Shown here: positions 26,781 through 62,558 of the stretch, piece after piece | Position numbering within the stretch: position 1 is the first letter of the stretch | How the letters are laid out: every line of letters starts with the position of its first letter | DNA from: a virus | Virus record (IMG/VR): IMGVR_UViG_3300023202_000205 | Location: 32,001-96,000 of that record | Direction: 5' to 3' (one strand) | Length of the DNA: 64,000 bases | The notes under the pieces: model-generated | What the model saw: only the letters and a program-made list of their open reading frames with translations | The model's database searches: none | What the model was told of the DNA's origin: nothing | Made by a program: the position numbers and the translations under genes

Positions 26781-26804
26781 AATAGTGTTCACGTGAACAC
26801 TATT
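26781..26804. promoter_or_regulatory. Palindromic junction motif (perfect 24 bp)
   Basis: aatagtgttcacgtgaacactatt overlaps the TAG at 26800 and ends 11 nt before ATG 26769. Confidence 0.75.
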
Positions 26805-28557
26805 TCTGCTCAGGTAGGGCAGGTCTCTTACCCCCACCAAACTGGGGAACCCCTGTGCCCAGCCGCCTGATAGGTTCACTTCCCACTGCCGGTTTGATAT
26901 CAGGCTTCTTGATGCGCTGTCGAGGCCTCAAGGTCCCACTATAGGTGACAGACGGATCAAGTGTCAGCGCACTGGCCACTAGATGTGGATTCTTCGCAAA
27001 AAGAGCCCCCATACGCCTTCCCCGGGACCCTCGTCCCAGATCGCTGAAATCGCCTGTGCTCATTGCCTGAGCTACTTCCTCACGGTTTCGGGCGATGAAG
27101 CGTTGGGCACTCCTCCCAAGATCGCCTCGTCGACGGAAACCATGGTGAACCTCCTGGGCCATCATAGCTGGGACCAACTGAGGATTGGTACTCGCCAAGT
27201 CACCCAACAAGCGGGCGCCACTACCCTCTATGCCCTCCAGCTCCCTCATCAAGCCACGGTCCTTCATGGCCCGCTCTCCCAAGCGCTGAATAGCAGTGGT
27301 GTCCCCACGCTCCTTGGCGCTCTCGAGCCGGCGGCGGTAGCGACTGTCGAATCGAACAGCCTTATCCAGGGCCTCTGCCCACGGTTGCTTCTGTAACTGG
27401 GCATAGGACTGCGCAGCTGGCTCAAGCAGCTTCTCAGCATCGGCTCCGAGCTGAGTACGGAGAACACCTGACTGACCTACCAGCTGCATAGCGGTCATTG
27501 GGTCAATGCCTTGCTGGTCAGCGATGTCGGCCGCCTTGGCCATTTGACGCGCGTCGATCATGCCACGCCGGGCAAGATCTCCCAGGTAGTTAGCTGACTG
27601 GATCAATTGTGAAGGATCCTCAGCGTAGCCCTGTCCGAGGCGGCTAGCCAACGACATCGCTCCACCAAAGGTCTGAGCAAGGCCCTGCTTGTGAAGTGCA
27701 TCAGCCGATTTGGCGATGTTGGCGGCATGCGCCATGTTCGCCCGATTACCCAGCCGCTCTCTGGCAAAGCCCATCGCGCTTGCCGCTAGCTGAGCAGGGA
27801 TCGGACGCCCCTCTTGGTTGAACCACCCTTGGTTATACGCTTGGCGAAAGTTTTGAATGTTCTGAGCGAAAAGACCCTCGTCGAAACGGCCTTCATTTTG
27901 GGCCATCGTCATCTTCACAAACGGGGAAAAATCGGCAATGAAGTTAGGGTCCATCGCGCTCAGAGTAGACGCAAGCTCGGGCACCGCAGGAGCTAACTGC
28001 CCATACATCATCCCTAGCTGCTGGGGCGGCATACTCTTGACCCAGCTAGTGGCCGCTTCGCCACTCAGCCCACCGAGCCAGTCCTGCCGGATATTCTTGG
28101 GGATCTTGTTGATCCACTCCCCCGCCATGTCCGCAATCCGACCGACGAGACGGCCACTCTCCTGGAACTGTCTGCCCATCATCTCACGATTAACACGAGC
28201 TGCTTCGCGGGTCGCCGCTGGATCGCCGCCGTACCCGACCTGGATAGGCTCCATCAGATCAAGGCCGGTTTTCTCCTTCACCCACGGAGCTACGAAGGGA
28301 AGCAATAGCGCTGGCGCCGTTCCCATCTCCCCCATCACGTTCTGCAAAAGGCTGATACCTATGCCAGCAGGACTGGTTGTATTGCCTTCCCGCCCTGCAA
28401 ACCCAGGTACTTGCTGACTCTCATATTGAGCGTGCTGAGCTCGACGTTGATTGACGTCAGGAAAAAATCCCCTGAAGCCACCCGGAGGCGGACCACCTGG
28501 TCTACCTGGTTGCTGCACCTGGGCGAACTTAGTAAGAGCTTTCTTACCTAACGTCAT
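26800..28557 (-). CDS. Putative ejected protein (G/Q/M-rich, helical)
   Basis: 585 aa; N-terminal KKALTKFAQ; hydrophobic segment GIGISLLQ...ALLLPFVAPW. Confidence 0.6.
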   Translation of the reverse strand: MTLGKKALTKFAQVQQPGRPGGPPPGGFRGFFPDVNQRRAQHAQYESQQVPGFAGREGNTTSPAGIGISLLQNVMGEMGTAPALLLPFVAPWVKEKTGLDLMEPIQVGYGGDPAATREAARVNREMMGRQFQESGRLVGRIADMAGEWINKIPKNIRQDWLGGLSGEAATSWVKSMPPQQLGMMYGQLAPAVPELASTLSAMDPNFIADFSPFVKMTMAQNEGRFDEGLFAQNIQNFRQAYNQGWFNQEGRPIPAQLAASAMGFARERLGNRANMAHAANIAKSADALHKQGLAQTFGGAMSLASRLGQGYAEDPSQLIQSANYLGDLARRGMIDARQMAKAADIADQQGIDPMTAMQLVGQSGVLRTQLGADAEKLLEPAAQSYAQLQKQPWAEALDKAVRFDSRYRRRLESAKERGDTTAIQRLGERAMKDRGLMRELEGIEGSGARLLGDLASTNPQLVPAMMAQEVHHGFRRRGDLGRSAQRFIARNREEVAQAMSTGDFSDLGRGSRGRRMGALFAKNPHLVASALTLDPSVTYSGTLRPRQRIKKPDIKPAVGSEPIRRLGTGVPQFGGGKRPALPEQK

Positions 28558-28576
28558 AACTGTGTTATCGCCTCAG

Positions 28577-29455
28577 TTAGGGTTTGTTCTTCTGAACAGT
28601 TTGTCTCGAGACACCCTTAGTAGTCCCACCAGTAACCTTGCGTCCACTCACCATGTTCTTCTGCCGTTCCTCGGCCTGCTCCCTGGCTTTACGACGGTTA
28701 CGTTCTGAGCGGTCCGTATGTCCCAGGCCCGACAAACGGCGGTTCCTCAAAGCCAAGTCGCTGGCCATCTGAGCGGCGCTCTGACTCTGTGCCAGCTTTG
28801 CTTTAACAGCCTCCCCAAGCTTGAGAGGGCCCCCCACCATATCCGGGCTGAACCCAGGCTGGCCAGTCACAGGCCCTGGTTGAGCTTCCGGAGGGGGCGG
28901 TTCTGCTTGTTCAGCAGCCTTCCCATCTCCCTCAGCAGCCTCTTGAGGCTTGGCCTTCCCAACCATCTCCAGCGCTTGTCTGACGATATCCATCGTGTTC
29001 TGCTGGATACCCTTCAAGGCTTCGACGTCTCCACCGGAAATAGAGGTGTCGCCCTCACCGCCCTCTTCCATGCCTTCCTCACCAGGAAGCGGGGGGAGTT
29101 CTTCTCCCCCAGGAAGTGGGGGAAGACCGGCCATAGGGTCTCCGCCACCGGCCGCCATAGGATCCAAAGGAGGAGCCCCACCGCCAGCAGCTGGATCCAT
29201 GGGCGGGGGAGGCATTCCACCACCCCCGGGAGGTGGTGCCCCGCCCATCATCGCAGGATCCATGGGAGCTCCGCCCATCATCGCCGGATCCATGGGAGCT
29301 CCGCCCCCACCCCCGCCGGGCGCGACAGGCATACCACCTGGCCCAGCGGCCTGCTGTCCTTGCTTGGCAGTCATCGGCACAAACGCCTGTTTCTGACGGT
29401 ATTCTTCCAACCGCTCTTGAAGCGCTCTTTTGAAGAATCGTGCGTGATTGGTCAT
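28577..29455 (-). CDS. G/P/M-rich low-complexity internal protein
   Basis: KQAF followed by GGAPMDPAMM repeats; KLAQ before a basic C-terminal segment. Confidence 0.6.
   Translation of the reverse strand: MTNHARFFKRALQERLEEYRQKQAFVPMTAKQGQQAAGPGGMPVAPGGGGGGAPMDPAMMGGAPMDPAMMGGAPPPGGGGMPPPPMDPAAGGGAPPLDPMAAGGGDPMAGLPPLPGGEELPPLPGEEGMEEGGEGDTSISGGDVEALKGIQQNTMDIVRQALEMVGKAKPQEAAEGDGKAAEQAEPPPPEAQPGPVTGQPGFSPDMVGGPLKLGEAVKAKLAQSQSAAQMASDLALRNRRLSGLGHTDRSERNRRKAREQAEERQKNMVSGRKVTGGTTKGVSRQTVQKNKP
29241..29306 (+). repeat. 30-bp tandem repeat (2.2 copies) encoding GGAPMDPAMM
   Basis: ccgcccatcatcgc(a/c)ggatccatgggagct twice, plus a partial third copy. Confidence 0.9.
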
Positions 29456-29496
29456 CGTTCCATCCTAACCAGTGTTGTAGTGTTGCCTGAGAGCCG

Positions 29497-29916
29497 TTAT
29501 TTTCGTCGGGAAAGAAGATAGGCCAGGATACCGCCTGCGCCTGAGCCACCCAAAGCCCCAAGCCCAGATACACCCAAATCACCCGCGAGGATTCCTGGGG
29601 CTGCACCCAAGGCACCCCCTAAACCGACTCCGGCGCCCGTGGCTCCCCCGGTAAGGGCTGACCGAAGGATAGCGTCACCACGATCCTCGTCCTCGTCCTT
29701 CTCGCGGAGAGCACCCACGAGCCCCCCAATGCCGGTTCCTATGATGCCGGGCAAAACAGGGGACAGAGCCATTCCCGTAGGGTTGAGCTTACCAGGACTC
29801 TTGAGGCGTATGGTAGGCTCATATGACGAAGGATCGAGATCCTCCCTCGAGATGTCGTACCCCGGGTGTGTGGCACCTAGTTTAGAGAGTCTGTGATACA
29901 TGTCCGTCGGGCTCAT
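29497..29916 (-). CDS. Small glycine-zipper membrane protein
   Basis: PGIIGTGIGGLVGAL and ALTGGATGAGVGLGGALGAAPGILAG...GGILAYLL. Confidence 0.7.
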   Translation of the reverse strand: MSPTDMYHRLSKLGATHPGYDISREDLDPSSYEPTIRLKSPGKLNPTGMALSPVLPGIIGTGIGGLVGALREKDEDEDRGDAILRSALTGGATGAGVGLGGALGAAPGILAGDLGVSGLGALGGSGAGGILAYLLSRRK

Positions 29917-32900
29917 TGTTCTAGAATCCTTATAGGGGTTCTGGCATTGATCTTTCCGCGAGCAAATGCTCTACGGGCCTCTTCCTCCGTAGCGAAGACC
30001 TGTACAGGTTCCTCCTTATCGGGGGTGCTGGCAAGATACAATCCAGCCAGGTAGTCCTGCATCGGCTCCAGGTGGGTCTCGAAGGTACCTGTGAAAAACA
30101 GGTTCTTGGAGGGCATCAGCTTCGTTTTAGCGTCTTGAATGGCCTCGGAGGAGGCTGGTACGTGGATATTGATCTGGTCACCATCGTAGTCACCACCGAT
30201 ACCCTTGAGAGTATGGTAAGGCATGCCAATGGCGTCGTCATCCCGCAGCTTGCCCCACGCGCCCACATAGGCATAGCGATGAAGCGCGGGCGCGCGGTTA
30301 TAGACCACGGGCCTTTCCTTCATCTCTTCTTCCAAAGCCTTTTGAGCAACTGGCTTACGTTCTTTAACTGCCTTCAGGGCGTCCGTCGCCTCCATCCCCA
30401 ACCGTCGTAACCGACGGATAACGTAGGGTTTGAAAATCGTGAAAGCCATATCCTTGGGGACACCCACCTCATCCATGTCGAGTGACTTATCGGCTGTGAT
30501 AACCCCACGTCCCACAGAATCGACAGCGGTCCCGATGACCTTACGCTGGTAAAAAGCACCCTTGGGACTCTGGCCGACACCGATAGCGTGTCGCAGAACG
30601 CCTTTCACACCCTGCTCCGCAGACTTCTGGCTGACCGGATCCCTTGTACCCGAGATAGCCCCCACCGCTTGCATCATCGTCAGATACTCGTCACCAGCCT
30701 CCCCGAATTGCTCCTTCGCACCCTTGTAGTTTTCCCGGGATTCGAGCAACTCGTGATACAAGTAGTTCAGGTCGTGAACCACATCGATACCACGAGCACT
30801 TGTGATCGGCCGATACTTCGGGGGAACAACTGGGACCTTCGTGACCATTAGCTGTTCTGGGCTGAGCTCCATATTCTTAAGCCCAGCCAGGTAGTTCAGG
30901 CGCTTGACCGCCTGGTCTCGCTTCGTCTTCCGCCCAGAGCGTATGGTCTCCTTGGCAAGTCCCATTTCCCGATCGATATTGATCGACTTCAATGCAGTCT
31001 GCACTGCCTGAGGGCCGGTTTCCCCATTGAGCTCTTCCTTGCCGGCTAGAACAGAGTCGAGCTTCTTACCCGTCACACCAAGCAACTTCTGGATGGGATC
31101 CAGGAATAGTGGGTGCGGTATCGGGGCGGGGAGCGTGATCTTGGCAAAACGAGACCCCTCTGCACCTCCTGTAGCTTTGATATCGAAGAGCCCACCCGGT
31201 ACAGGTTTCATTGTTTCGAAATTGAACGTACCAGGATTCTCAACCTCATGATCTGCCAAGGTATCCACTTGGTCGTCCGTCAGAGGTGTTAGTTGAGAAC
31301 GTGTGCCTTTCTCCCGGACATTAACCCCGGCTCCGCGAAGCAGATCCTTGAAGCGCTGGTTGGCAAAGCTCTCTGAGGGAGCTATCGGTTCCTCACCCGC
31401 GCGAATGGCTCGCCAGTAGTCATCATTGCGCTGCCCACGGACTAGTTTGGCGTCACGTAAGAAGTTGGTAGCCCCCGCCGCAAGCAGCGCGTGAGCATCA
31501 AGCATGCTAATCCGCTTACTACCTTCTTTGCCACCCTTGGCCGGGATGCCCTCAGTCGTATACGTACCAACATCTCGAGCGCCAAGTTTGCTTTCAGCCA
31601 TGTGATGGAGCTTCATGAAGTAGCTCTCGCCAGTAAACACATTCGGGATCTTGGATCCATCCCTCGGGTCCGTAAGCGTCTCGGTATCGCGAATCTTCCC
31701 GGTTACCGGGTCCTGCTCGATAACGCCATACTTGAGCGCCTCTTGAAGAGCGAACTCCGTCACGTCTTCCGTGTCAAAACCCTTCACCGCGTAAGGTTTG
31801 CCGCGCTTACGGGCAGCTTTGCCCAGTAGCGACTCGGCTAAGGCGCCCGGATTGGTACGACTAACGATACCCAGGGCGTTGGCGATTACCTCAATGGGGC
31901 GCCCCTCTGAGTCGAGTGGCATTTGATCATCCGGCCGGATCTCCGAGATAACGCCTTTGTTGCCAAAACGACCTGACAGCTTATCTGCACCACGCATGGC
32001 GTCATACGACTTCACGGTAACCTTGATTCCCTTGGGTGTACGATTTACGTCCGTCACCACCCCAGGGGCGTGGTGGTCCCACCGCTGGGCATGGTCGGTC
32101 GTAGTCGATCGAGGGCTGCTCATCAGCGCGCCAACAGCCTTCTTGCCCTTCTTACCAAACCCCAGAATAATCGGATCCCCTGGCTGCAACTCAGCCCCTA
32201 CCTTTATGACACCGTCATCCCCGATCTTTTTGTACTGATCGGCATCAAACTTGTCACTGTAGATCGCCTGATACGACTTCTTATCTGTCGAGTCCACATC
32301 AGAAAGGTCCAAGTCGCTCTTGTAGAGGGCCTCGCTAGTCAACTTCTTAGCAGCACTTTCGCTGATGACGAAAGCGTCTTCAATGGTATCCCCCTCAGCA
32401 GCCATGAAAGCTACCCGCAAGTTGCGGCCAATAGCTGCAGTACCCTTGTCGTCAGTGAAGTTCGACTTGGCAAGCAACTGACCAGGCGTGACAAAGTCGC
32501 CCTTCTTCACCAATGGGGTGTTATGGATCATCGTTTTACGCGCTGACGGGTAATTGTTGTACAGGTCGACAACCTTGTTTTTACCATCAGCTGTACGGAT
32601 CTTGACCTCATCAGGGGTCACGGCGATTACCGTACCCTGCACAGGCGTATAGGCCGCACCCACATAACGCCCCATGGCCTCATGGGTATTCTCTCCGCCA
32701 GGTCCCTTGGTCTGTACTAGAGGTGCCTCCGGCTCTCGCAGTGGCATTGCCTGCTGCGTCATTCGAGCCCCCATCAACAGACGCTGGCCCTTGATGGACT
32801 GCGGGAAAGGAATCATCGCCGTAGCCCGAGACATCATATTCCCAGGGTCTGGGATGGCGTAGTCCACCTCCTCTTTGGGGACATACTGGATTTTGTCGTC

Positions 32901-34379
32901 CTTGATGGCTGGGACCCGTTTGGCGTCCTTTTCCATCTCACCAGGGAATGAGATCACTTTGGTAGAAAGTGTTCGCGCGGACACAACTTCTTCTTCGCCC
33001 GTCTTGATATTCCTTACCGGGGTGTATAGCTGGTTATCGCTCCCCTTCAGGGCTGCATCTGTCGCTCGAAGATCCAAGCCCAACTTGCTGGACTCCGGAC
33101 CTCGGACAGGGTCGATAACGCCAATGTAGCTCGCCTGTACTCCACGAGCACCTCGGCTGACAGCCTGCTCGCTTGAGATGCCACCCTCCCCCATGCGTGT
33201 AATGGCTTGTCGCTGATCATGCACTTCGAACGGGTTGATGTCCTCAACGGAAAGCGCAAGGCCTGAGCCCTCGAAAAGGGATCCAATGTTCTTATCCATA
33301 ACGCCAGTAGGGATCTTCATCTTACCTTGCCTAGCTGACCGCCAGAGCAACTTACGTAGCGTGCCCGCAGGATCTCGCTGCAAACGCTCCCGGATGTAAT
33401 CCTCAGCACCATGGATCGACTGGAAGGCAGGAGAGTCCCGGTTGTCGCTCTTCTCCTCGTTCCTGGCTACGCGGATCACTTTACCCGTGGCGTCCAACAA
33501 CGTGCCGGTTGATAACTGGTCGATCGCCTTGCCAAGTGTCAACTCGGTAGTCTCAGGGTCTACCTGGGCTTTATCTAGAATATCACGGAAAGCTTCGGGA
33601 AGCAGGTCTTCGTCGACGTCGGTCTTCTGCGACCCCAACTTTCCCACCACCTTCTTGAGATCCTTGATGTCGTTGGCCGAAGGCGCTCGGTAGTTCTTGT
33701 TGTAAAGCTCCTCTCCCCAGCGCTTCTTGATGTCCTCATCCGAAACGCCTAGCTGACGAAGAAGTGGATAGAGCCTCGTCGTCGACTGACCGATCTGCAT
33801 CTTGAAAAGACCGGTCTTCGGTTCGAGCAAGATACGGAAGGCTCGCCCGGTACCGGGCTTGATGTTGAAGTGACTCTCAGTGCCCCCATCTGCGCGGGGA
33901 CGAGTGTAGACCCCCGGTCGAAGGCGTGCCTGGTTCCGCAAAGACCAGACCACCCCTTTACGAATGAAGACACCACGGCTATTCAAATGTGGGATGCGAG
34001 CCAACGTAACACGCTGCTCGTCAATTGGGGTCTCGGTAGCCTTGTCTACAAGACGTACCGTACCTCTCAGTGGACGATGCAGGGAAGTTCCCTGCATGAT
34101 CATCTCTTTCTCGTCACGCTTAGCTGGCGTGAAAGGTCCCTCGTAGCCAACATCCGTCACTTCCAGACGGTGTGTCGCATTTTCAACAGGTTTCATTCCC
34201 TGCAAGGCTTCGACGGCAGAGTTATAGATGTCCTCCCGTTGGGTATCCGAGTCATCAAAACGCCGCAACCGAACTGGGCGCGGAGCAGCCACAGGGCTCT
34301 GACTGGCTAGATTACCTGGCTGTACCGGATCCAGTGGAGCTGGAGGGTTTATAGGATCCAGCGGAGAAGCTAGAGCCAT
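29913..34379 (-). CDS. rpoB: RNA polymerase beta subunit fused to the N-terminal half of beta'
   Basis: Beta motifs IPHL..RGVF, GEGGIS...R.V..SYIG.IDPV..PE...GL, QRLLMGARM.QQAMPL, DKLSGRFGNKGVIS and YFMKLHH. Then beta' motifs GGLFD, VDSVGRGVI, NRAPALHR and catalytic GGDYDGDQINIHVP (30177-30191). Confidence 0.95.
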   Translation of the reverse strand: MALASPLDPINPPAPLDPVQPGNLASQSPVAAPRPVRLRRFDDSDTQREDIYNSAVEALQGMKPVENATHRLEVTDVGYEGPFTPAKRDEKEMIMQGTSLHRPLRGTVRLVDKATETPIDEQRVTLARIPHLNSRGVFIRKGVVWSLRNQARLRPGVYTRPRADGGTESHFNIKPGTGRAFRILLEPKTGLFKMQIGQSTTRLYPLLRQLGVSDEDIKKRWGEELYNKNYRAPSANDIKDLKKVVGKLGSQKTDVDEDLLPEAFRDILDKAQVDPETTELTLGKAIDQLSTGTLLDATGKVIRVARNEEKSDNRDSPAFQSIHGAEDYIRERLQRDPAGTLRKLLWRSARQGKMKIPTGVMDKNIGSLFEGSGLALSVEDINPFEVHDQRQAITRMGEGGISSEQAVSRGARGVQASYIGVIDPVRGPESSKLGLDLRATDAALKGSDNQLYTPVRNIKTGEEEVVSARTLSTKVISFPGEMEKDAKRVPAIKDDKIQYVPKEEVDYAIPDPGNMMSRATAMIPFPQSIKGQRLLMGARMTQQAMPLREPEAPLVQTKGPGGENTHEAMGRYVGAAYTPVQGTVIAVTPDEVKIRTADGKNKVVDLYNNYPSARKTMIHNTPLVKKGDFVTPGQLLAKSNFTDDKGTAAIGRNLRVAFMAAEGDTIEDAFVISESAAKKLTSEALYKSDLDLSDVDSTDKKSYQAIYSDKFDADQYKKIGDDGVIKVGAELQPGDPIILGFGKKGKKAVGALMSSPRSTTTDHAQRWDHHAPGVVTDVNRTPKGIKVTVKSYDAMRGADKLSGRFGNKGVISEIRPDDQMPLDSEGRPIEVIANALGIVSRTNPGALAESLLGKAARKRGKPYAVKGFDTEDVTEFALQEALKYGVIEQDPVTGKIRDTETLTDPRDGSKIPNVFTGESYFMKLHHMAESKLGARDVGTYTTEGIPAKGGKEGSKRISMLDAHALLAAGATNFLRDAKLVRGQRNDDYWRAIRAGEEPIAPSESFANQRFKDLLRGAGVNVREKGTRSQLTPLTDDQVDTLADHEVENPGTFNFETMKPVPGGLFDIKATGGAEGSRFAKITLPAPIPHPLFLDPIQKLLGVTGKKLDSVLAGKEELNGETGPQAVQTALKSINIDREMGLAKETIRSGRKTKRDQAVKRLNYLAGLKNMELSPEQLMVTKVPVVPPKYRPITSARGIDVVHDLNYLYHELLESRENYKGAKEQFGEAGDEYLTMMQAVGAISGTRDPVSQKSAEQGVKGVLRHAIGVGQSPKGAFYQRKVIGTAVDSVGRGVITADKSLDMDEVGVPKDMAFTIFKPYVIRRLRRLGMEATDALKAVKERKPVAQKALEEEMKERPVVYNRAPALHRYAYVGAWGKLRDDDAIGMPYHTLKGIGGDYDGDQINIHVPASSEAIQDAKTKLMPSKNLFFTGTFETHLEPMQDYLAGLYLASTPDKEEPVQVFATEEEARRAFARGKINARTPIRILEQ

Positions 34380-40857: not shown

Positions 40858-42747
40858 TCACATACCACCTTGGAGTAGCATCTGGCCGCCCTGGCTACGG
40901 GCTGACGATCGGATGTCCTCCATCCGCTGCATAACCAAGTCATGAAGGTCCTTATTACCCTCCCGAAGCGCCTTGAGCTCCTGCTTACGACTGAAATCGT
41001 CCATCGTCACAAGCTGCTGGGCAATCTGGTCAGCCTGGTCGGAGATAGCCGACAAAGACTGCGGAGTCTGGCTCTGCGGACCAGGCATACCCCCCATAGG
41101 AGCCCCACCCATACCTGCAGCCGCCGCTCCACCGGCAGCCATGGGATCCATCGGAGCCCCACCTCCAGCCCCGGCCATCATCTGTTGCTGCTGCATAGCT
41201 GACGGAGTTGGGTGCTGAGTCATCCCCTTGAGGACGCCCATCTCCTGCTGCTTCATAGCACGCTCGTCGTATTCCGATTGAATACGGGCCACATAGTCCT
41301 GATGGGACATGACCTTTTTGACCTCTTCGTGAGCGTCGATGCCGAACGGCTGCAGAGCGGTCTGAGGCGACAACTGGTTGGCCGACATGAGCTGCAAGAG
41401 CACTGCCTTACGTTCCATATCATCGGCAATAGTGGTCTTCTGCATCTGAACCTTGGTCCGGTCCAGGCCATACGCCCGCGACACCACATTGACGATCCAC
41501 TCGAGAACCCTGTTATAGAAGGCAGGAATAGCCTGCCAGTAAGCCTCAAACAGACGGAGCGACATAGGAGCTGCCTGGGTAGATAGGTTCATCTGATGGT
41601 ACTCAAGCGGGACACCCAGCTGGTTCAGGTATTCCTGGTGACGGAACTTCAGTTTTTCAGGTGGCAACAGTTTATCGCCTTCCCCTCCCAGGAACTGATA
41701 TTGCAGCGGGTAAGGACTCACGTGGTAGCTCGCCGGATTGTTCCGATGCTCATTCACGATGTTACGAACACGGCCGGAGAAGTTCTCCATACCAGTTGTC
41801 ACCATCGGGTCCTGTCCACCAGGGGTAGGTGTGGGACTTATGATCCTCATACCCAAGGTATAATCGATCGTAATCGCCTGATCCTGTTTGTTAGTTAGCT
41901 GCTGTAGCCACGCAGTACGGAAATTGGCGATGCTGCGAGGAATACCCCACCCTCGCGTACGCAGGCCTGAAATCTGCACCTCTGATTGATGAAGAATCAT
42001 GTCCTCATCGAACCGCAGACGCCCGTTGACGGCGACCGCTTCGAGCACCTCTAGCGGGGTGTCGTCAATGTGAATGCGGGACCTCCCCAGGATGTCCCGC
42101 CGCTCCTCCTCCGGAATCTTCCAGTAGAACTCTTTACGAAGACTAAAGCGATTCTGACTGATCTCGATGTCAGATGGGTCATACCTGTTTAGTTTGACCT
42201 TCGACAAATCGGGGTCCCGGCGATCGAAGACTTCGTAATTCGAACGGTCTCCACAGCGCGGGCATGCCGACTTACGATGCCACCTCAGATAAGGTGCTGC
42301 CGTGTGGAACTCCAGATTATAGCCGACCTCCGAAAGTGGCTGCTCCAGTTGACACCCTTCGCAACGAACAAAACGCTTGAATGGTAAGTAGATACTGACG
42401 AAGGAGTTACCATAACATAGGTAGTCGTAAGCGGGGCCAAGCAGCTCCCGGCGGTAGTCCATATGGTTACTAAACAGATCTTTGAAAGCCGATTCTTCAT
42501 CAGCCTGAAGATCAGGGAACTCCAACACCGTCATGAAATGACAGGCCACTCGCTCCATCGCAGTACGGTAGTTACCGTCTGAGATCCACATGTACTGGGA
42601 CCACCACATCACCAATTCGTGGTTGTCTGGTACCGCCACCGTAGAGTAATCCAGCCACGGAGTCATAAATGGTCGCTGGTTTGGCGACAAAGAGGTGCTA
42701 TTGGTTAGCGCTCGATTATCGGGAGTGGGGATAATTGAGTTAGGCAT
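40858..42747 (-). CDS. Portal protein with Zn-ribbon insertion
   Basis: DYLCYGNSFVS portal-type motif, RGWGIP, LGVP, CEGC...CPRC insertion and an M/G/P/Q-rich C-terminal tail; 629 aa at the head of the head-gene block. Confidence 0.8.
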   Translation of the reverse strand: MPNSIIPTPDNRALTNSTSLSPNQRPFMTPWLDYSTVAVPDNHELVMWWSQYMWISDGNYRTAMERVACHFMTVLEFPDLQADEESAFKDLFSNHMDYRRELLGPAYDYLCYGNSFVSIYLPFKRFVRCEGCQLEQPLSEVGYNLEFHTAAPYLRWHRKSACPRCGDRSNYEVFDRRDPDLSKVKLNRYDPSDIEISQNRFSLRKEFYWKIPEEERRDILGRSRIHIDDTPLEVLEAVAVNGRLRFDEDMILHQSEVQISGLRTRGWGIPRSIANFRTAWLQQLTNKQDQAITIDYTLGMRIISPTPTPGGQDPMVTTGMENFSGRVRNIVNEHRNNPASYHVSPYPLQYQFLGGEGDKLLPPEKLKFRHQEYLNQLGVPLEYHQMNLSTQAAPMSLRLFEAYWQAIPAFYNRVLEWIVNVVSRAYGLDRTKVQMQKTTIADDMERKAVLLQLMSANQLSPQTALQPFGIDAHEEVKKVMSHQDYVARIQSEYDERAMKQQEMGVLKGMTQHPTPSAMQQQQMMAGAGGGAPMDPMAAGGAAAAGMGGAPMGGMPGPQSQTPQSLSAISDQADQIAQQLVTMDDFSRKQELKALREGNKDLHDLVMQRMEDIRSSARSQGGQMLLQGGM

Positions 42748-42756: not shown

Positions 42757-42772
42757 GTGTTCGCGCGAACAC
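42757..42772. promoter_or_regulatory. Palindromic junction motif (perfect 16 bp)
   Basis: gtgttcgcgcgaacac ends 9 nt before the portal ATG at 42747. Confidence 0.75.
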
Positions 42773-42802: not shown

Positions 42803-43705
42803 TCAGTCGACCCGGACGAGAACAACTAACAACATCTCGTGACCATCGACTCGCATCTCAAAGGTAAACCCGTAGTATACACAGGGATACGTATTACCTT
42901 CGTGACTGACCGTCAAGCAGTCAGAGGGCTCCTGCGATATAGGGGGCTCAACAATCACCGCATCGTCGTCATCGACGTATCCCAGGACAACGAGCTGGTC
43001 CGAGATAGCAAGCTTGTTCACTCGTAGCCGGTGGCGGCCCATCCGCTCCGACTCCATGATAATCTTGATACGCTCAGCAGACGGGGACGTGGAACTTGCC
43101 ACCCGCAGCCCATTGAGTGCTGCCATACCAGATCCACCAGTAGTCGCCGCAACCGTTTGTGCCATCTCCGGCCCCGGCATAGCTGGTGTAACGTCTGTAG
43201 GAGGCGCCTTCTCCGGCTCTGGGGCAACCTCCTCGTGAGCGGTCTTGGCTTCCTGTCCCTGGACGTTGACAGGGGTTTCCGCGTCGAGATGAGCCGATGA
43301 ACGGCGAACAGGCTGCACCCCCACCCCGTGCTCTGCGGCAGTCTTCGGCGCTGGGGGGCGAACTGTAATGCCCATCGCCTCGACCCCCATTTCCAAAGAA
43401 GCGTCCTTGTGAAGCACGCCCTGAGGGGCCTGAGCAGCATTCTCCGGGTTGACTATGGAGCTCATAGCACAATTGCGGACACCCTCTTCGCGAGATACCG
43501 TCCCATCATCGTTGACAGTCACTTGGTCCACCCGGATATCGGACAGATCACCCTCCCGCGAGGCTACGGAGGCCCCAGAAGGGAGCCGCAGCTCCGTCTG
43601 ATCTTCTCCGGGGGATACGTGTTCCGCCCGGGCCAGGCCGCTAAGTCGGTTAGGGTGGTCCTTGCAGTAATGAATCCCTGCAAAACCTAGATTGCCTTCA
43701 TCCAT
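42803..43705 (-). CDS. Hypothetical protein with P/A-rich linker and small C-terminal beta domain
   Basis: 300-aa ORF directly upstream of the portal, with its own promoter. Confidence 0.6.
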   Translation of the reverse strand: MDEGNLGFAGIHYCKDHPNRLSGLARAEHVSPGEDQTELRLPSGASVASREGDLSDIRVDQVTVNDDGTVSREEGVRNCAMSSIVNPENAAQAPQGVLHKDASLEMGVEAMGITVRPPAPKTAAEHGVGVQPVRRSSAHLDAETPVNVQGQEAKTAHEEVAPEPEKAPPTDVTPAMPGPEMAQTVAATTGGSGMAALNGLRVASSTSPSAERIKIIMESERMGRHRLRVNKLAISDQLVVLGYVDDDDAVIVEPPISQEPSDCLTVSHEGNTYPCVYYGFTFEMRVDGHEMLLVVLVRVD

Positions 43706-49006: not shown

Positions 49007-49195
49007 TCAGGAACGAGACTTGAGAAGTCGGTATAGCTGGTCTACAGGGCTTGCGGACCCTTTCTTCTCCCAGGTTTCAGGGACCCGGTTTTCCTTATTA
49101 GCCGTTGAGTAGAACACTTCTTTAGCCTTCTTGTCAGACTTGTACGTGTCCTTCATCGACTCCATGACTTTTTTGGCCTTGCCCTTGAGCGGCAT
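49007..49195 (-). CDS. Small basic phage protein
   Basis: MPLKGKAKKVMESMKDTY...KEVFYSTANK; SD GGGGG upstream. Confidence 0.65.
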   Translation of the reverse strand: MPLKGKAKKVMESMKDTYKSDKKAKEVFYSTANKENRVPETWEKKGSASPVDQLYRLLKSRS

Positions 49196-49292: not shown

Positions 49293-49310
49293 AGTGTTCG
49301 CGAGAACACT
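49293..49310. promoter_or_regulatory. Palindromic junction motif (7-bp arms)
   Basis: agtgttc-gcga-gaacact overlaps the TAG of 49309-49896. Confidence 0.7.
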
Positions 49311-49896
49311 ATCCGTCGATCAGCTCTTTCCCCTTATCGACCGCGAAAGTCGTAGCGAAGTCGGTCAGCTTATCGATCACCGCCTTGGGCAGGAAGGCCC
49401 GAACGCTTTCAGGTAGTTTACCAATCAGCTTGACCAGCACCCTATCCAGCAGATCGTCCAGCTCATCCTCCCCCAGACGTTCAATCAGGTCGATGTTCTC
49501 CTTGGCGAACTTACGCAACACCCTGTCCTTAACGTAGTTACGCAACTTGGTCCAGTGATGGCTCCACCGGAACCCGCCCCCGTCTGAGACATCCTTGAGG
49601 ATTGGGGGGATATTGGTAATCAGCCAATGTTCGGCAGTCGAGATGGCAAACGGAGTCACGCGAGTGTCGATCAGGTGATTCCGCTGCTCCCAGAGAGACT
49701 TTTCCTTGTCGATCTCAGCCTTCTCGGAGTCGACTTTGACCTTCTTACGGACCATCGTCGCGATCCACGTCACGAGGGCCACCAGAGCGGCTCCAGCCAC
49801 GGCCACCCAGGTCGTGGTCTCAGGCATGCCTGAGTCAGCCTCCTCAGCGACAAGCAGAGCTGGCAGCAACAAGAGAACGAGGGGATGATAACGCAT
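49309..49896 (-). CDS. Membrane protein with signal-like N-terminus and one TM helix (possible lysis accessory)
   Basis: MRYHPLVLLLLPALLVAEEA then WVAVAGAALVALVTWIATMV; SD AAGGAG. Confidence 0.6.
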   Translation of the reverse strand: MRYHPLVLLLLPALLVAEEADSGMPETTTWVAVAGAALVALVTWIATMVRKKVKVDSEKAEIDKEKSLWEQRNHLIDTRVTPFAISTAEHWLITNIPPILKDVSDGGGFRWSHHWTKLRNYVKDRVLRKFAKENIDLIERLGEDELDDLLDRVLVKLIGKLPESVRAFLPKAVIDKLTDFATTFAVDKGKELIDG

Positions 49897-57727: not shown

Positions 57728-58375
57728 CTAACTGTTCTTACCAAGCACCTTGGCCAACTCGTCCAGCTGGCCTTGGATCTTGGCTTTCCTCGTCTTCGGG
57801 AGTACCTCTCCAAGTGCCAGCAGAGCCTCGCCCATTTGGTAGACCGCTTCCGGAATCTCCAAAGTCAGCTTCCCCCGCTCCGTGGACGGCTCTGGCTCAG
57901 AGGTACTCTCCTCTGCCACCGACTTCTCAGAGACCGCCTCATCCCCCTTTAGCTGAGCTCCCTCCGCCAGGGCTTTCTGATTCTGACGAACCAGGTCTGC
58001 CGACGTCAGATCATTGCTGGCTTGGCCGAAGGCATCTGGGCCCTTCTCTTTCGGGTCTGTTTCCCGCACCCCAGGGGCATGCTTTGGGGCATCCTCCATC
58101 TGTGCATCATGGTAGCCTTGCGCCTTCTTGTGCGCGTCAGGATCGCCATCATAGTCTGGCGCCCACTGCATCGTATTGGCTCCGTCGAATTCAGCGCCCA
58201 CGTCGATAATGCCCAGATTAGCCTTCTTGCCCTCCCCGGAAGGGATCCAACGCCCTGTGTTGTGGTAAATAGGCGGTGTCGTGAATGCACACTGCATCCC
58301 CGAGCGGTCGATTGCGTAGGCAATGGCGTCCGGAAGTACCTTCCGAATACGAGCCCAGCCGTGAGCGTTAGGCAT
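57728..58375 (-). CDS. Hypothetical protein
   Basis: 215-aa ORF with coupled overlap to the upstream gene. Confidence 0.55.
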   Translation of the reverse strand: MPNAHGWARIRKVLPDAIAYAIDRSGMQCAFTTPPIYHNTGRWIPSGEGKKANLGIIDVGAEFDGANTMQWAPDYDGDPDAHKKAQGYHDAQMEDAPKHAPGVRETDPKEKGPDAFGQASNDLTSADLVRQNQKALAEGAQLKGDEAVSEKSVAEESTSEPEPSTERGKLTLEIPEAVYQMGEALLALGEVLPKTRKAKIQGQLDELAKVLGKNS

Positions 58376-59210
58376 CGGTCTTCTCCTGGTGTGAGTTAAG
58401 TAGTTGGTCTAGGTGGATTTCAGAATAGCTGGCGCCTGTGTAAGCCGGGTCCCCATAAAAGCGGAACACATCCTCCACCTCCATGGGAATGACGTGGCAG
58501 CCAAACAACTGGGAAGTGTCTGGACTCAGAGCATACCTTGAAAAGGCCGCAAGGAACCTGTCGAGTGTCTTGTGAGCAACATGGACCTCCTTCGGCCCAG
58601 CCTTTCGATTTCCGCTAGCATCGTAAATAGCTTTCATAGCCTTCTTTAGAGAGCCGGCTAGTTGAATCGACCGTACTGGGTACCCCACATAAAGCAGTCC
58701 TCGTGCCCCCATCTGAGCGTCCTGTACCCCGGGAACGTGGGTCTCTCCAGCTGCTGATCGGACGGTGTCTTCGTCGATGTCAGCACGGATATCGAACTCC
58801 CTAGGACGCACCACGCGGGGATTGGGTCTGTTTCGCTCAGCACTCAAACCAATGCGTTCAGGCTCGATGTGTTCGTCAAATGGGGAAGAGGCTCCCTCAT
58901 CTCCCATGACCACATAGGTTTGCCCAGTCGGCTTTCCGTGCTCATCGAACATCGGTTGTACGCCCGCCTGCTCCATCAACTGACGGCGCCTCTCGGGAGT
59001 CAGTTCTTGGCCATCTTCTCCAACAACTACGGGGACGTACTCCTGATGCCGGTCAGCTACGTGTACGTCGGGGAGTGCTATGTTGTGTCTATAAGCAGAG
59101 ATAGCACGCTCCGATGCTTCTCGAGAGGGGCTCACGGTGTGGATGAGTGGTACTTCCTCGCTATTTCCAAAGGAACTCCCACCGGTGTTACTAAACGGAT
59201 CGGACATCAC
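58368..59210 (-). CDS. Hypothetical protein
   Basis: 280-aa ORF with ATGA-type overlap to its neighbour. Confidence 0.6.
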   Translation of the reverse strand: MMSDPFSNTGGSSFGNSEEVPLIHTVSPSREASERAISAYRHNIALPDVHVADRHQEYVPVVVGEDGQELTPERRRQLMEQAGVQPMFDEHGKPTGQTYVVMGDEGASSPFDEHIEPERIGLSAERNRPNPRVVRPREFDIRADIDEDTVRSAAGETHVPGVQDAQMGARGLLYVGYPVRSIQLAGSLKKAMKAIYDASGNRKAGPKEVHVAHKTLDRFLAAFSRYALSPDTSQLFGCHVIPMEVEDVFRFYGDPAYTGASYSEIHLDQLLNSHQEKTDA

Positions 59211-59605
59211 ACTGCCTGTAGTCGGTTTGACGTAACCTTGTAGGACCAGAGAGGAAGCCGGGAGAGGTGGTCGATGACCTCCTTTGAGCTCCCGAACGCC
59301 GTCACATTAACCATACTCCCTTCTACGTCAATTTGCAAGGACGGTGCCTCACGGGACAGGAGTTCCTCGATCAGAAGGGCGTCTGCGTTCTGGTAGATCG
59401 TCAACCGATTCCCAGCTATAGATAGGCTGCCTAAGGATTTTTCGAAACGTCTATAACCCTCCGGGTCATCGCTATCGACCGCCAAGGCATTTGGCCAGAA
59501 CTCGATGATTCGGCTAAAAACGTACATTAGGATCTCTTGAGGCTGAGCCTCCATAGGTACTTCAAACTGCATAGGCTTCCCCGGGAACGGTGACGAGTAG
59601 GACAA
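59207..59605 (-). CDS. Hypothetical protein
   Basis: 132-aa ORF; start is either TTG 59605 or ATG 59572. Confidence 0.55.
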   Translation of the reverse strand: MSYSSPFPGKPMQFEVPMEAQPQEILMYVFSRIIEFWPNALAVDSDDPEGYRRFEKSLGSLSIAGNRLTIYQNADALLIEELLSREAPSLQIDVEGSMVNVTAFGSSKEVIDHLSRLPLWSYKVTSNRLQAV

Positions 59606-59623
59606 AGTGTTCGCGTGAACACT
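59606..59623. promoter_or_regulatory. Palindromic junction motif (7-bp arms)
   Basis: agtgttc-gcgt-gaacact in the 27-nt gap between two genes. Confidence 0.72.
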
Positions 59624-59632
59624 CTTGAAGAC

Positions 59633-60127
59633 TCAGAAAAAGTACAGTCGTACCATCTGTGATTCAAGTGCCCTTACCGCAAGACCCATGTACCTCGCCC
59701 CCTGCCTACGCTGGGTCTCCATGAACTGCTCATAGGCCTCTGGGGTGTCTGGTATATCGAAACTCTTACCAACCAAGGAGTTGGGCTTAGCCGGCACTGG
59801 CATGGGTGGGCGAGCCGTACTAACCGCCCTATTGGCTGTCGGATCAACTGACCAGTCCTCGTCTGGGTTGATCTGCCTCAGTAGCTTGCCGACCTTGGCC
59901 GGCTCCTCTGAAAGGACGTCCAGCATTGAGTGCCGACAGCTACCACAGCCCGGCTTATCCCGGAACTTGTTCAACGTCTCCCCATGCTGAGGCCAGAGCT
60001 TCACGAACTCACGACCAATCCTGCGCTCCTCATCCGACTGATTGTTTACGTCGGGGGTGCGAAGAAAGTCGAGTACCGTATTGAGATTAACCCGTTTACC
60101 CACGTTACTCCTTACACGGATTTCCAA
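59633..60127 (-). CDS. Hypothetical protein with a CxxC motif
   Basis: KPGCGSCRHSM; 164 aa. Confidence 0.55.
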   Translation of the reverse strand: MEIRVRSNVGKRVNLNTVLDFLRTPDVNNQSDEERRIGREFVKLWPQHGETLNKFRDKPGCGSCRHSMLDVLSEEPAKVGKLLRQINPDEDWSVDPTANRAVSTARPPMPVPAKPNSLVGKSFDIPDTPEAYEQFMETQRRQGARYMGLAVRALESQMVRLYFF

Positions 60128-62522
60128 TACACCAGCGCCTATTCAACCGACGTACGTTGATTGTACAGGGCTCCGGCCCCTGATTGAGCCCAGGCTGCTC
60201 GAACGGACCACCCCCTCCGTTTTCACAATCTTCTGACGTGCAATCATAGCACGGACACGTGTCTCTGGTTGGGGGAGCTGGGGCATCTACATAGTTGGCT
60301 CTGAGGAGCAGGAACTGCTCACAGTTGGCCTCGTCCGGATGGTCAACAATCATCGTCGTACACTCCGCTGCGCTAATACAGCAGTCAGCTGTCTTGGTTG
60401 ACCGTTGAGTATACGGGATTGGTCCATCATGGTTGAGAAACTTGAAGGGTACCGCACACCCAGGTGAGTCGGTAGTCGTGAGGAGCATGATACCATCCTC
60501 TTCCGTCTCAGAGAGGATGGTCTCCTCAATACACTCCTCGATGAACCACCTTTCTCTTACTTCACTCTCACACTCGGTGACTACTTCAATCGACGTAGTT
60601 GGGAATGCGGTGGGTATAACGACGTCCGACACACCCGCCGTCACCGTTTCCAAATTGGTAATCAGACCGATAGCAGATGTCTCAAGTGATGCCACCAGAT
60701 CGATCGTTGAAATATCGATAGCAGTAGCCACCTCCGCGCTGTCGGCTACCACATTTATCGTATTGATATTTGAGATAACGTCGACCCCACCGGGCACTAT
60801 GCCAAGAGACGTGATCAAATCGATAACCGTCGTACCAGCGGCTACCGTGGTGACATCCGTTACTACAGTAAGCGTGGAGGTAACGGTACCATCACAGACC
60901 ACCAGTTCCGCCGTCCCTAGCGCACTCACCAACCCGCCATTTCCAACTGGCAAAGTGACTCCCACGTCTTGCCCAATTGCTGTAACCGCCTCGATGTTCT
61001 GGACGTCGACGCTATCAACTAAACCACCTGGCTGTACGGAAGAGGCAAACGTGACAAGCCCGGTCTCGACGTTGGTCGCAACATCGACCGGAATAGTCGA
61101 GAACCCCGTTACGAGGTCGACAAGCCCACTCTCCAAAACCGAAACGAGTGCACCGTCTCCAACGGGTACCTGTATTGTCGCCGTCTCCAGATCAGTGACG
61201 AACTCCACCAAGTCCGTCTTGCAACTGGTCATCAGAGTCAGGTCAGTCGTAAAGCAGCTCGAAGGGATCGTAATCTCAGTCGTCGTAACAAACCAGCTAT
61301 CGAAGAAACTGACAGGTACCGACCGCTGAACCGGTTTGATAATATCCTCGGGAACAAAGCAGTCAGCCTGATCAGGCGTGACCGTTGCCTTACAATCCTC
61401 TGTGCAGAACTCCTCACACTCCGGTTTATAGATAACCGCCTGGCCTTCATAACCAGGGTTGGGGTGGTTCCAGTTGCCTGTCTTAGGAACGGTACGCCCA
61501 AACCTGCCGATAATCTCCACCTGAGCCATCGGGCAGTCAGGAATACCAGCACAGCTGACGTCACTAAGTAGTGACGCCCCGTACCCATTGGAGAAGTTGA
61601 CCACCCCTACATTGCAGGGATCAAGCTGGCGTAGCTGGTCGAGTGGGTAGACCTGGCCAGGCTCTGTTGCTCCGTAGAGCTCCATGGCCGCTTCCCACAA
61701 CTCTGAGTTCCGTGTACACTTCACACAACCACAGGTCTTGAGAAGTGCTAAGTAGAATGGGTGGGTGCATCTGACGGGAACGTTGAGGCCATTATTGACA
61801 ATGAATTGGCTTTTGTTCCCTTCAAAGTCTCCGCACTGGGCCGTGGGGTTACAGAGTGTTGAGAACAGTAACGCGTCTACGTTGGCCCCAGCCGCGCCTC
61901 CCGCACCTCCACCGCCGTCACCAGCAATAGCGCTTGTACACGCGCACGGGTCTGGGGGTGCTGGCGGGTCTGCAATACCCCCGCCAGCAGGGCCTTGCGT
62001 TTGAGGGACCGGGTTGTCCGGGCAGTCGTCAGGAGCTCCGTCGGACTTATAGAAGCCAACTGCCCCCGGCTCAAAAGTCATGAGCCGTTGCTCCAGCCCG
62101 TTGATGGCGATGGGCGACCCCATGTTGATCACCATCAGCCGTCCCGTCACGCTAACGACATCGCCGCCCCCGATCTTGGACTTGTTGAGCAAGACGATGT
62201 TCGTGTTCCACACGACCAGCGCCTCGGAGAGCGACATAGGGTTAACGCCAGCCCAGACGATATACGGACGCGCCGCCTGTGCAGCAGGGGCGCCTGACAA
62301 CAAACCGCCAGGCTCGGTGAACTTGATCTTGGGGCCTTCGGAAACGTTCCCTTCACCATCTACCCGGGTACCGGCTATCGGGGCACTAGGGTGCTCCAAG
62401 CGGGCGTAAACGGGGGATGTCAGGGGGAAGCTGACGGTGCCCGTACCTGTACCGGTGTTGGACCGTAACCACGGACCACTCGGTGAAGGATCGTCAGTTA
62501 AGTAGCCATCGGCCTGAGCCAT
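60105..62522 (-). CDS. Cys-rich, V/T-repeat fibre- or spike-like protein
   Basis: Likely start ATG 62522 (MAQADG). About 33 Cys clustered at both ends flank a V/T/D/S-rich repeat core (DLV..LET..I). Confidence 0.65.
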   Translation of the reverse strand: MAQADGYLTDDPSPSGPWLRSNTGTGTGTVSFPLTSPVYARLEHPSAPIAGTRVDGEGNVSEGPKIKFTEPGGLLSGAPAAQAARPYIVWAGVNPMSLSEALVVWNTNIVLLNKSKIGGGDVVSVTGRLMVINMGSPIAINGLEQRLMTFEPGAVGFYKSDGAPDDCPDNPVPQTQGPAGGGIADPPAPPDPCACTSAIAGDGGGGAGGAAGANVDALLFSTLCNPTAQCGDFEGNKSQFIVNNGLNVPVRCTHPFYLALLKTCGCVKCTRNSELWEAAMELYGATEPGQVYPLDQLRQLDPCNVGVVNFSNGYGASLLSDVSCAGIPDCPMAQVEIIGRFGRTVPKTGNWNHPNPGYEGQAVIYKPECEEFCTEDCKATVTPDQADCFVPEDIIKPVQRSVPVSFFDSWFVTTTEITIPSSCFTTDLTLMTSCKTDLVEFVTDLETATIQVPVGDGALVSVLESGLVDLVTGFSTIPVDVATNVETGLVTFASSVQPGGLVDSVDVQNIEAVTAIGQDVGVTLPVGNGGLVSALGTAELVVCDGTVTSTLTVVTDVTTVAAGTTVIDLITSLGIVPGGVDVISNINTINVVADSAEVATAIDISTIDLVASLETSAIGLITNLETVTAGVSDVVIPTAFPTTSIEVVTECESEVRERWFIEECIEETILSETEEDGIMLLTTTDSPGCAVPFKFLNHDGPIPYTQRSTKTADCCISAAECTTMIVDHPDEANCEQFLLLRANYVDAPAPPTRDTCPCYDCTSEDCENGGGGPFEQPGLNQGPEPCTINVRRLNRRWCIGNPCKE

Positions 62523-62536
62523 GAGTCCCCACACAC

Positions 62537-62558
62537 ATAGTGTTCGCGCGAACACTAT
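62537..62558. promoter_or_regulatory. Palindromic junction motif (perfect 22 bp)
   Basis: atagtgttcgcgcgaacactat ends 14 nt before ATG 62522. Confidence 0.75.

Follow-up and report, generated by a model that had tools for sequence, protein, structure and literature searches.

Palindromes at gene junctions of the window

We analysed a stretch of 64,000 nucleotides (nt) from an uncultured phage, bases 32001-96000 of the 179,364-bp IMG/VR record IMGVR_UViG_3300023202_000205 (hereafter the window), in which a short palindrome, GTGTTC-N4-GAACAC, recurs at the junctions between genes. The record is 96% complete and has a G+C content of 54%; its minus strand holds about 92% of the genes, as called with our own codon model trained on the long open reading frames (ORFs) of the phage. 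The phage encodes its own multisubunit RNA polymerase (RNAP), with an unusual gene arrangement: one ORF of 1488 amino acids (aa) unites a beta-like part with a beta'-N-like part, and the beta'-C part is encoded apart from them in an ORF of 632 aa (window 24681-34379). A 71-aa gene that precedes the beta'-C gene is conserved in this phage and its three relatives, and no second (non-virion) RNAP set was found in the phage by tblastn. For comparison we used the related phages G004, G126 and, more distant, G127:C1, together with an unrelated siphovirus (G001/G002).

An exact search of the window for GTGTTC-N4-GAACAC returned exactly five matches where 0.01 were expected, and none of 100 dinucleotide shuffles reached five. 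The cores lie at 26785-26800, 42757-42772, 49294-49309, 59607-59622 and 62540-62555, all five with CG at the centre, and each is placed between two co-directional ORFs in a region where all genes are on the minus strand. An earlier note on this DNA, made from its letters alone, had listed five copies at gene boundaries, among them perfect palindromes of 24 bp (26781-26804) and 22 bp (62537-62558) and two copies that overlap a TAG stop; the search bears this out throughout, the copies at 26800 and 49309 supplying the G of the stop.

The 24-bp palindrome, AATAGTGTTC-ACGT-GAACACTATT, has as its first G the base that completes the TAG stop of a 585-aa gene (26800-28557, minus strand); the ATG of the 71-aa gene (26554-26769) follows 15 nt downstream and the RNAP beta'-C gene comes next. 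The second site, with the core GTGTTC-GCGC-GAACAC, lies 30 nt past the stop of a 300-aa gene and 9 nt from the first ATG of a 629-aa portal-like ORF (40858-42747); it is private to this phage, the orthologous junction lacking the site in all three relatives. The third, AGTGTTC-GCGA-GAACACT (49293-49310), overlaps the TAG stop of a 195-aa gene (49309-49896), with a conserved 62-aa gene (49007-49195) 98 nt downstream, and G004 has an exact copy in the corresponding region. The fourth, AGTGTTC-GCGT-GAACACT (59606-59623), stands 10 nt past the stop of a 156/164-aa gene and 1-34 nt from the start of a 121/132-aa gene. Its junction is conserved, with GTGTCC-GCGC-GAACAC in G126 and a degenerate copy at the same place in G004. 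The fifth is the 22-bp palindrome, ATAGTGTTC-GCGC-GAACACTAT, which lies 15 nt past the stop of a 66-aa gene and 17 nt from the ATG of an 805-aa Cys-rich gene; at the orthologous junction G004 has a one-mismatch copy and G126 a shortened GTGTC-GTG-GACAC.

The window also holds two intragenic near-copies on the minus strand, each with one mismatch: GTGTTC-GCGC-GGACAC at 19328-19343 in a 461-aa gene (18796-20181), and GTGTCC-GCGC-GAACAC at 32969-32984 in the 1488-aa RNAP beta/beta'-N fusion gene (29913-34379), where it coincides with the conserved peptide VSARTLS.

Distribution and anatomy of the site

Over the whole genome we counted 15 exact copies, all 15 with an NCGN centre, four one-mismatch near-copies (none in shuffles) and one two-mismatch near-copy (1.2 in shuffles), giving about 20 copies (15 exact and 5 near); in addition, the copy at genome position 111220 has a tandem partner at 111239, 18 bp away. 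In the genome-wide scan for intergenic enrichment that the earlier note had proposed, 13 of the 15 exact copies turned out to lie in non-coding DNA, which makes up 9.5% of the genome (binomial P = 4.5e-12, on our own gene calls); this bias alone is no proof of a role in expression, because an invariant 22-bp word fits poorly in coding sequence. The exact intergenic copies occupy short gaps between co-directional genes, 9-98 nt upstream of the next start codon, and are typically found 0-30 nt past a stop and mostly 9-40 nt ahead of the next start.

When the sites are aligned along the direction of transcription, the flanks extend them to a symmetric 22-mer, A-W-A-GTGTTC-N-CG-N-GAACAC-T-W-T (A at -3 in 14/16 and at -1 in 12/16; T at +16 in 10/16 and at +18 in 13/16), and the two variable positions of the centre, D and H, are likewise symmetric. 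No second conserved element was found within 30 nt on either side. Among intergenic 7-mers, those of the palindrome itself are the only clearly site-like words near the top of the enrichment ranking, the others being terminator tails, start-codon contexts and CRISPR-leader words.

Identity with the SOS box of Verrucomicrobiota

The LexA-binding box of Verrucomicrobiota is reportedly TGTTC-N4-GAACA, and the earlier note had given it in this form. PMC8565304 cites a 2016 paper on LexA motifs (Erill et al., Front Mol Biosci 3:33). We re-derived the motif from genomes. A scan of a prokaryotic collection of 596 Gb for TAGTGTTC-NCGN-GAACACTA gave three matches, one of them in a Verrucomicrobiota metagenome-assembled genome (MAG; G005). 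There TATAGTGTTCACGAGAACACTATG overlaps the ATG of a RecA-like (ImuA-type) gene that is followed by an ImuB (IMS family) gene, and lexA of the same MAG has TGTTC-CCTT-GAACA two bases upstream of its ATG. Of 30 Verrucomicrobiota lexA loci that were sampled, five have the exact TGTTC-N4-GAACA upstream, frequently in the form ctaGTGTTC...GAACACtat; in other lineages of this sample the arms are TGCTC, TATCA or TATAC, in the same frame.

Scanning with TAGTGTTC-N4-GAACACTA yielded at least about 83 loci, 33 of them from Verrucomicrobiota among the matches listed, and the motif is strongly over-represented in Verrucomicrobiota genomes. At 25 of those 33 listed loci a homologue of lexA (10) or imuA (15) starts at the site, and at some of the remaining ones the box precedes an integrase or relaxase gene. 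Because lexA or imuA starts at so many of the listed sites, the motif is a genuine SOS operator of Verrucomicrobiota, as the earlier note had it.

The phage site equals the Verrucomicrobiota consensus at nine bases in each half-site (TAGTGTTC...GAACACTA). It shares the spacing and dyad symmetry of the host box, both are also found in tandem, and the flanking G/C and TA of the host box are matched by the phage copies, (A-W-A)GTGTTC-N4-GAACAC(T-W-T). The two differ in abundance and in setting. A host-type genome of 6.7 Mb holds three exact 16-mers, whereas the phage has 15 in 0.18 Mb, a density about 190 times higher. Host boxes adjoin the ATG or promoter of lexA, imuA-imuB and a few other genes, whereas those of the phage separate the members of long co-directional gene arrays and have no recognisable promoter. 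In one Verrucomicrobiales MAG (L197, L228) there are two copies of the same 60-bp stretch with TAGTGTTCCAAAGAACACTA, one ahead of a BlaI/BlaR1 pair and the other at the gene of an IS200-like Y1 transposase; the box there may be part of a mobile-element end.

The same arms in an unrelated siphovirus

The siphovirus (66 kb, 43% G+C; record IMGVR_UViG_3300035698_018668, 48-66 kb, L069 / L102-L103, and L022) has no protein in common with this phage. Its 9-11 early genes, which include anti-restriction, methyltransferase and helicase genes, are marked by GTGTTC-AYRT-GAACAC past terminators and 10-35 nt upstream of a conserved ribosome-binding cassette. The order within the cassette is a terminator, an AT-rich TTAATTAAC-like word, the palindrome and a conserved leader, AGGAATTGACGATATG. 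The replication protein of the siphovirus was found neither in genome contigs nor in 201 Verrucomicrobiota genomes. That two unrelated phages share these arms points to a factor that the two do not both encode, and is most simply explained by a host factor.

A candidate array of LexA-type operators

We tentatively read the palindromes as a genome-wide array of LexA-type operators that gates transcription at gene junctions in a stoperator-like manner, a reading that we regard as plausible but somewhat short of probable. The roughly 20 two-fold symmetric 22-bp duplex sites would be read by a dimeric DNA-binding protein which, bound in the tiny co-directional gaps, would gate transcription into the next block of genes. 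The leading candidate for this reader is the LexA of the host, because the half-site is identical to the Verrucomicrobiota consensus SOS box. LexA would then hold or throttle the morphogenesis, RNA-polymerase and accessory gene blocks, and its self-cleavage would release them; the invariant central CG could reflect an extra requirement, for example for a phage cofactor that acts with LexA, as gp7 does in GIL01.

From these comparisons we infer that a protein, specifically LexA, binds the palindromes, that its binding blocks transcription and that the host is a verrucomicrobium. Identity with a host operator and reuse by an unrelated phage favour LexA, alone or with a CG-requiring phage cofactor, because such identity and reuse would be hard to get by chance. 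A fuller version, in which some 20 junctions, including those before the polymerase, portal and virion-cargo blocks, copied the LexA operator, cleavage or titration of LexA brings about a genome-wide release and the sites of the relatives were re-tuned stepwise to other readers, strikes us as doubtful.

The abundance of sites also bears on a different use of the same repressor. Thousands of perfect boxes on replicating phage genomes might act as a sink that titrates LexA and induces the SOS response (repair, nucleotide supply, division arrest) in an undamaged host, and the intergenic position might then reflect mere tolerance of a 22-bp word. The excess over the host-type density fits such a sink, as does the fact that all 15 copies, unlike the degenerate boxes of host regulons, agree perfectly with the consensus in both arms and flanks. 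There is moreover no promoter element beside the sites, and copies are kept inside genes where the protein sequence permits. The regular spacing of 9-40 nt to the start codons, seen also in the siphovirus, nevertheless exceeds mere tolerance, and the CG centre and the variants in relatives count here as they do for LexA binding generally; we consider a sink improbable.

Duplex site or hairpin

A perfect palindrome can also be read as a structure, and hairpin promoters or processing sites were among the options of the earlier note. RNA or extruded-DNA hairpins could be recognised by the phage transcription machinery as virion-polymerase promoters (as in N4), as terminators or pause signals of the phage polymerase, or as intercistronic processing or stability elements. 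The sites lie directly past stops and ahead of ribosome-binding sites, their predicted stems amount to -7 to -14 kcal/mol, and compensatory symmetric arm changes between relatives preserve pairing; in G004 the junction ahead of the 71-aa gene is occupied by another, equally perfect hairpin, GTGAAT-GCGC-ATTCAC. The flanks are complementary in a site-specific manner both in the distant relative (P = 0.015), where the loop has 4 or 5 nt, and in the siphovirus (P = 0.018, including G.U pairs on the sense strand).

Within this phage, however, sense and antisense folds of the palindrome show no consistent difference (mean -0.9 kcal/mol; 11/16 sites) and flank complementarity is not site-specific (permutation P = 0.18 at the core edge and 0.60 beyond AWA/TWT). 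Its near-copies carry uncompensated mismatches, C.A on the sense strand, and 3 of 7 intergenic sites in G126 pair TGTCC with GAACA, which again gives a C.A mismatch in the sense transcript. The mixed arms of G126 look like the independent choice of half-sites expected of a protein site. Because strand bias of folding, flank complementarity and compensation in the near-copies are all lacking, the data point to a fixed duplex site within this phage, rather than a hairpin. Arms that are invariant in 15 of 15 copies are also more conserved than structure alone demands, and a perfectly symmetric promoter would fire in both directions, whereas the genome is 92% one-stranded. The symmetric arm changes between phages fit a dimeric protein and a stem alike. 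For this phage the hairpin option of the earlier note is accordingly disfavoured. For the family as a whole it keeps some weight, given the flank complementarity in the distant relative and the siphovirus and the variable loop of the former; overall we judge a hairpin unlikely.

Known kinds of transcription signal were compared as well. An ordinary intrinsic terminator was rejected, as the palindrome has no U-tract and a weak stem (2 GC pairs of 6); its tail holds on average 3.3 T in 7, interrupted, and only one window copy has a terminator-like score, on the antisense strand. Ordinary terminators with a GC-rich hairpin and a T-run exist elsewhere in the genome, which makes the palindrome a signal of another kind. 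The window contains no Rfam family. Promoters of the AR9 or phiKZ type were rejected because the palindrome is symmetric and has a GC-rich centre, and counting from AACA puts no T-A/G at the distance required of an AR9 late promoter. The known promoters of jumbo-phage multisubunit RNAPs are AT-rich and asymmetric (phiKZ early, centred near -10; TATG at +1; AR9 late, AACA-N6-TA; PMC7598289), which also speaks against a hairpin promoter.

Variants of the site in related phages

Several lines of observation weigh against LexA as the reader, and we set them out together. The first concerns the centre. Host-box centres are AT-rich and variable, with NCGN in 1 of 33 among the matches listed, whereas the phage centre is always CG, and we know of no LexA-type protein that reads the spacer. 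The single NCGN host box is the imuA box, which was itself found with the NCGN-restricted pattern; as a verified host box with such a centre, it indicates that CG would be no bar to LexA binding. The CG centre is invariant in the exact and near copies of this phage and in the near-copies of G004 and G126. The second concerns the phage itself: it has its own multisubunit RNAP, no lysogeny genes were seen in it, and we found neither a sigma-70-like promoter at the palindromes nor any enrichment of one. Host searches were negative too, the CRISPR repeat of the phage having no match in the 596 Gb of genomes and the search for prophage relatives finding nothing.

The third line comes from the arms, which vary stepwise and symmetrically between related phages (GTGTTC, TGTCC...GGACA and GTCTCC...GGAGAC) and whose variants are unlike host boxes where checked. 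G126, the closest relative (191.5 kb, 63% G+C, beta'-C 71% identical), has about ten TGTYC-NCGN-GRACA sites, mostly TGTCC-GCGC-GGACA, and among 401 Verrucomicrobiota genomes the TGTCC type turned up in only two, no more than expected by chance. The distant relative G127:C1 is a 106-kb contig binned in a Thermoanaerobaculaceae (Acidobacteriota) MAG; it carries eight copies of GTCTCC-N4/5-GGAGAC, whereas the other 4.2 Mb of this MAG hold only two and showed no LexA. The concentration of the motif on the phage contig and the lack of a detected LexA make the element look phage-intrinsic there.

A site inside the 461-aa gene follows the same drift. The codons TGT GTT CGC GCG GAC ACT of this phage correspond to TGT GTC CGC GCG GAC ACC in G126 and to TGT CTC CGC GTG GAG ACG in G127:C1, whose orthologue thus has two complementary non-synonymous changes, V to L and D to E (CVRADT against CLRVET), by which the site becomes that relative's own genome-wide palindrome type. 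The intragenic copy in the RNAP beta gene corresponds to a perfect palindrome of the G126 type in G126 and to one with two mismatches in G004. Taken together, the GTGTTC, TGTCC and GTCTCC families represent one and the same element in evolution.

G004 (180 kb), whose RNAP is 61-68% identical, shares the gene order of this phage in inverted orientation. It carries one exact copy and four with a single mismatch, several of them at orthologous junctions, and its other palindromes are GTGAAT-GCGC-ATTCAC and GAACGGTGAAC-GCGC-GTTCACCGTTC. Two junction sites, at genome positions 9470 and 91608, keep their place in two or three of the phages. Turnover of sites between relatives is fast and some junctions are conserved; of the conservation in relatives that the earlier note had proposed to check, retention of position at some junctions was recovered, whereas arms vary and several sites are private. 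Its suggestion of control by host LexA, with a hint of a host from the Planctomycetes-Verrucomicrobia-Chlamydiae group, likewise survives in part: sequence identity supports a LexA-type operator and with it the hint at such a host, and the CG centre, rare in host boxes, and the variants of the relatives do not.

The CG centre and the stepwise drift favour a phage-specific reader. The sites could be operators of a phage-encoded dimeric regulator that co-evolves with them, their identity with the SOS box being coincidence or mimicry; such a protein would be conserved in the clade, would contact the central CG and would have drifted in specificity from GTGTTC through GTGTCC to GTCTCC. The constancy of the centre in three phages, the symmetric arm changes of one base each time, the conversion of the 461-aa gene site by two amino-acid changes, the confinement of the distant relative's motif to the phage contig, the lack of the TGTCC type among host boxes and the rapid turnover with retention of some junctions would all follow. 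Such a regulator would nonetheless leave the same arms in a siphovirus without a shared protein unexplained, agreement by chance with a real host operator at nine bases in each half-site is improbable, and no candidate protein was found: a LexA-like domain occurs in none of the phages, and the sole helix-turn-helix (HTH) protein detected is an apparent three-HTH monomer with invariant helices. We therefore hold a phage-encoded regulator to be somewhat unlikely.

The orthologous intragenic sites also bear on whether the palindrome has any role in expression at all. Repetitive extragenic palindromic (REP) elements are short, lineage-specific palindromes between co-directional genes, right after stops, and the phage element might be a selfish or neutral repeat of this kind, or else a partition or packaging site. 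Canonical parS is the 16-bp TGTTNCACGTGNAACA, with a ParB-family protein encoded nearby, and the ACGT-centred copy, alone among the copies, would share with it the central 10 bp TTCACGTGAA, the TGTT...AACA spacing differing by 2 bp. That intragenic sites follow the motif of each genome argues for function in cis, the copies measure only 16-22 bp with no further shared sequence, and parS sites need not avoid genes. A REP/RAYT element was rejected, as the phage has no Y1 (IS200-like) transposase (PF01797, E <= 1). We regard a repeat or partition site without a role in expression as very improbable.

Three side observations concern other repeats and insertions in the relatives. G004 2533-2897 (L083), upstream of a gene X / HTH pair, contains GTGAACAC-GTGAACAC as a direct repeat and, in two copies, the 26-bp palindrome GAACGGTGAAC-GCGC-GTTCACCGTTC, the core of which, GAAC-N4-GTTC, we take to be the classical Gram-positive-type LexA box; its outer GAACG/CGTTC flank recurs around the GTCTCC palindromes of the distant relative. 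In G127:C1 7650-14930 (L387) the 12-bp palindrome CCGGAGCTCCGG occurs 14 times within a coding unit that recurs (...C W S P E L R L F V A V...) and was rejected as a regulatory site, as it reflects a tandem-repeat protein. The orthologue of the portal-like 629-aa gene (window 40858-42747) has an insertion of about 1.3 kb in G004 (L084, 35793-37159), and apparently also in G127:C1 at about 42950-43260, with intein-like ends (YLCFRGDTRVV at the start, SFVIENGILTGNC at the end); the gene of this phage is without it.

Candidate readers and host

We found no S24 peptidase or LexA in this phage, G004, G126 or the siphovirus with Pfam models, and no LexA-like domain in the same four with a hidden Markov model of 40 Verrucomicrobiota LexA proteins (best E-value 0.6). 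A 14-bit LexA_DNA_bind match in a DnaB-like helicase is not credible. No integrase was matched by tblastn, which is a weak test, and no RecA was matched by Pfam in the candidate genes of the replication operon. The dormant state to which the earlier note had pointed therefore finds no support among these genes, neither an S24 repressor, a LexA homologue nor an integrase being found.

The earlier note had also named the HTH ORF at 63166-63759 as a possible reader. This ORF (minus strand, 197 aa, three weak HTH matches) is real and is conserved in G004 and G126 with 44-47% identity. Its second unit has an SRERVRQIA helix typical of sigma region 4.2, and its second and third recognition helices are invariant although the palindrome motif changes. 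The product looks like a three-HTH, sigma-region-4-like monomer, and no link between it and the palindrome was found. The HTH gene starts inside a conserved upstream ORF (MGEPIRIPLY...), the tail of which runs in another frame over its first 140 codons; the frame of the upstream ORF stays open across the HTH gene for a further 420 nt (window 63166-64000, genome 95166-96177). The same overlap is present in G004 and G126, and could represent overlapping genes or a programmed frameshift fusion.

The 36-nt CRISPR repeat of the phage, ctcgctatgcccgctcagaggcttggtatctgtgac, forms three arrays and several solitary copies upstream of genes. A solitary copy lies in the window at 4509-4660 (genome 36509-36660), and the other loci, in genome coordinates, are 104531-104942, 165157-165812, 171976-172631, 111384-111479, 129376-129869 and 168346-168536. 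The palindrome at genome 105174 is directly upstream of the leader of a mini-array, and that at 168864 is two genes upstream of a putative cas12m. A 600-aa plus-strand gene (genome 170173-171975; L097:14173-15975), flanked by a CRISPR array, is a predicted large terminase on the strength of a score of 0.99 against GpA-type large terminase clusters; the G126 orthologue of this gene has a copy of the palindrome some 100 nt upstream.

Significance and comparison with known systems

Were LexA the reader, the palindromes would provide a sequence-based prediction of the host (Verrucomicrobiota) for an uncultured clade of huge phages, and, as LexA proteins of Verrucomicrobiota have already been used in binding assays, the prediction is directly testable. 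The stepwise symmetric drift of the site in four related phages would be a natural experiment on the co-evolution of operators and their readers. If the reader is instead phage-encoded, or the element a hairpin, the palindrome would still be the main cis-regulatory signal of the clade.

The promoters of N4 and of jumbo phages are likewise phage-specific, near-invariant short motifs upstream of gene blocks. Those of N4, however, are oriented DNA hairpins with a stem of 5-7 bp and a 3-nt loop, read by a single-subunit polymerase, whereas the phage site is symmetric with a GC-rich centre. The proposed gating at gene gaps resembles the KorB sites of RK2. A closer parallel in layout may be drawn with the stoperators of L5, reportedly 13-bp asymmetric sites of cluster A mycobacteriophages bound by the gp71 repressor (Brown et al. 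1997). There, about two dozen near-identical sites lie in short co-directional gaps and one repressor blocks the transcription that passes through them; the 15 exact and 5 near copies of the palindrome, with 13 of the 15 exact ones intergenic, are similar. The L5 sites differ in being asymmetric, in having one orientation and in serving the phage's own immunity repressor, whereas the sites described here are symmetric 22-mers in a phage for which no repressor or lysogeny module was found.

Phages controlled by host LexA include GIL01, in which LexA and gp7 act on dinBox sites, CTXphi and coliphage 186, with its tum gene. All three borrow the SOS repressor of the host and have no cleavable repressor of their own, as proposed here, and gp7, a small phage protein that alters LexA binding, offers a possible analogy for the CG requirement. 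Phages of the GIL01 type have one to three LexA sites at the lysis-lysogeny switch, whereas here some 20 are spread over structural, polymerase and accessory blocks. To our knowledge, host LexA has been found to act in phages only at a single switch promoter, and dispersed stoperators only with repressors encoded by temperate actinophages. The use of host LexA and dispersed stoperators are thus each known, and it is their combination that would be new, together with some 20 consensus-perfect sites in a huge phage with its own polymerase and a co-evolution of the site that is visible across the clade.

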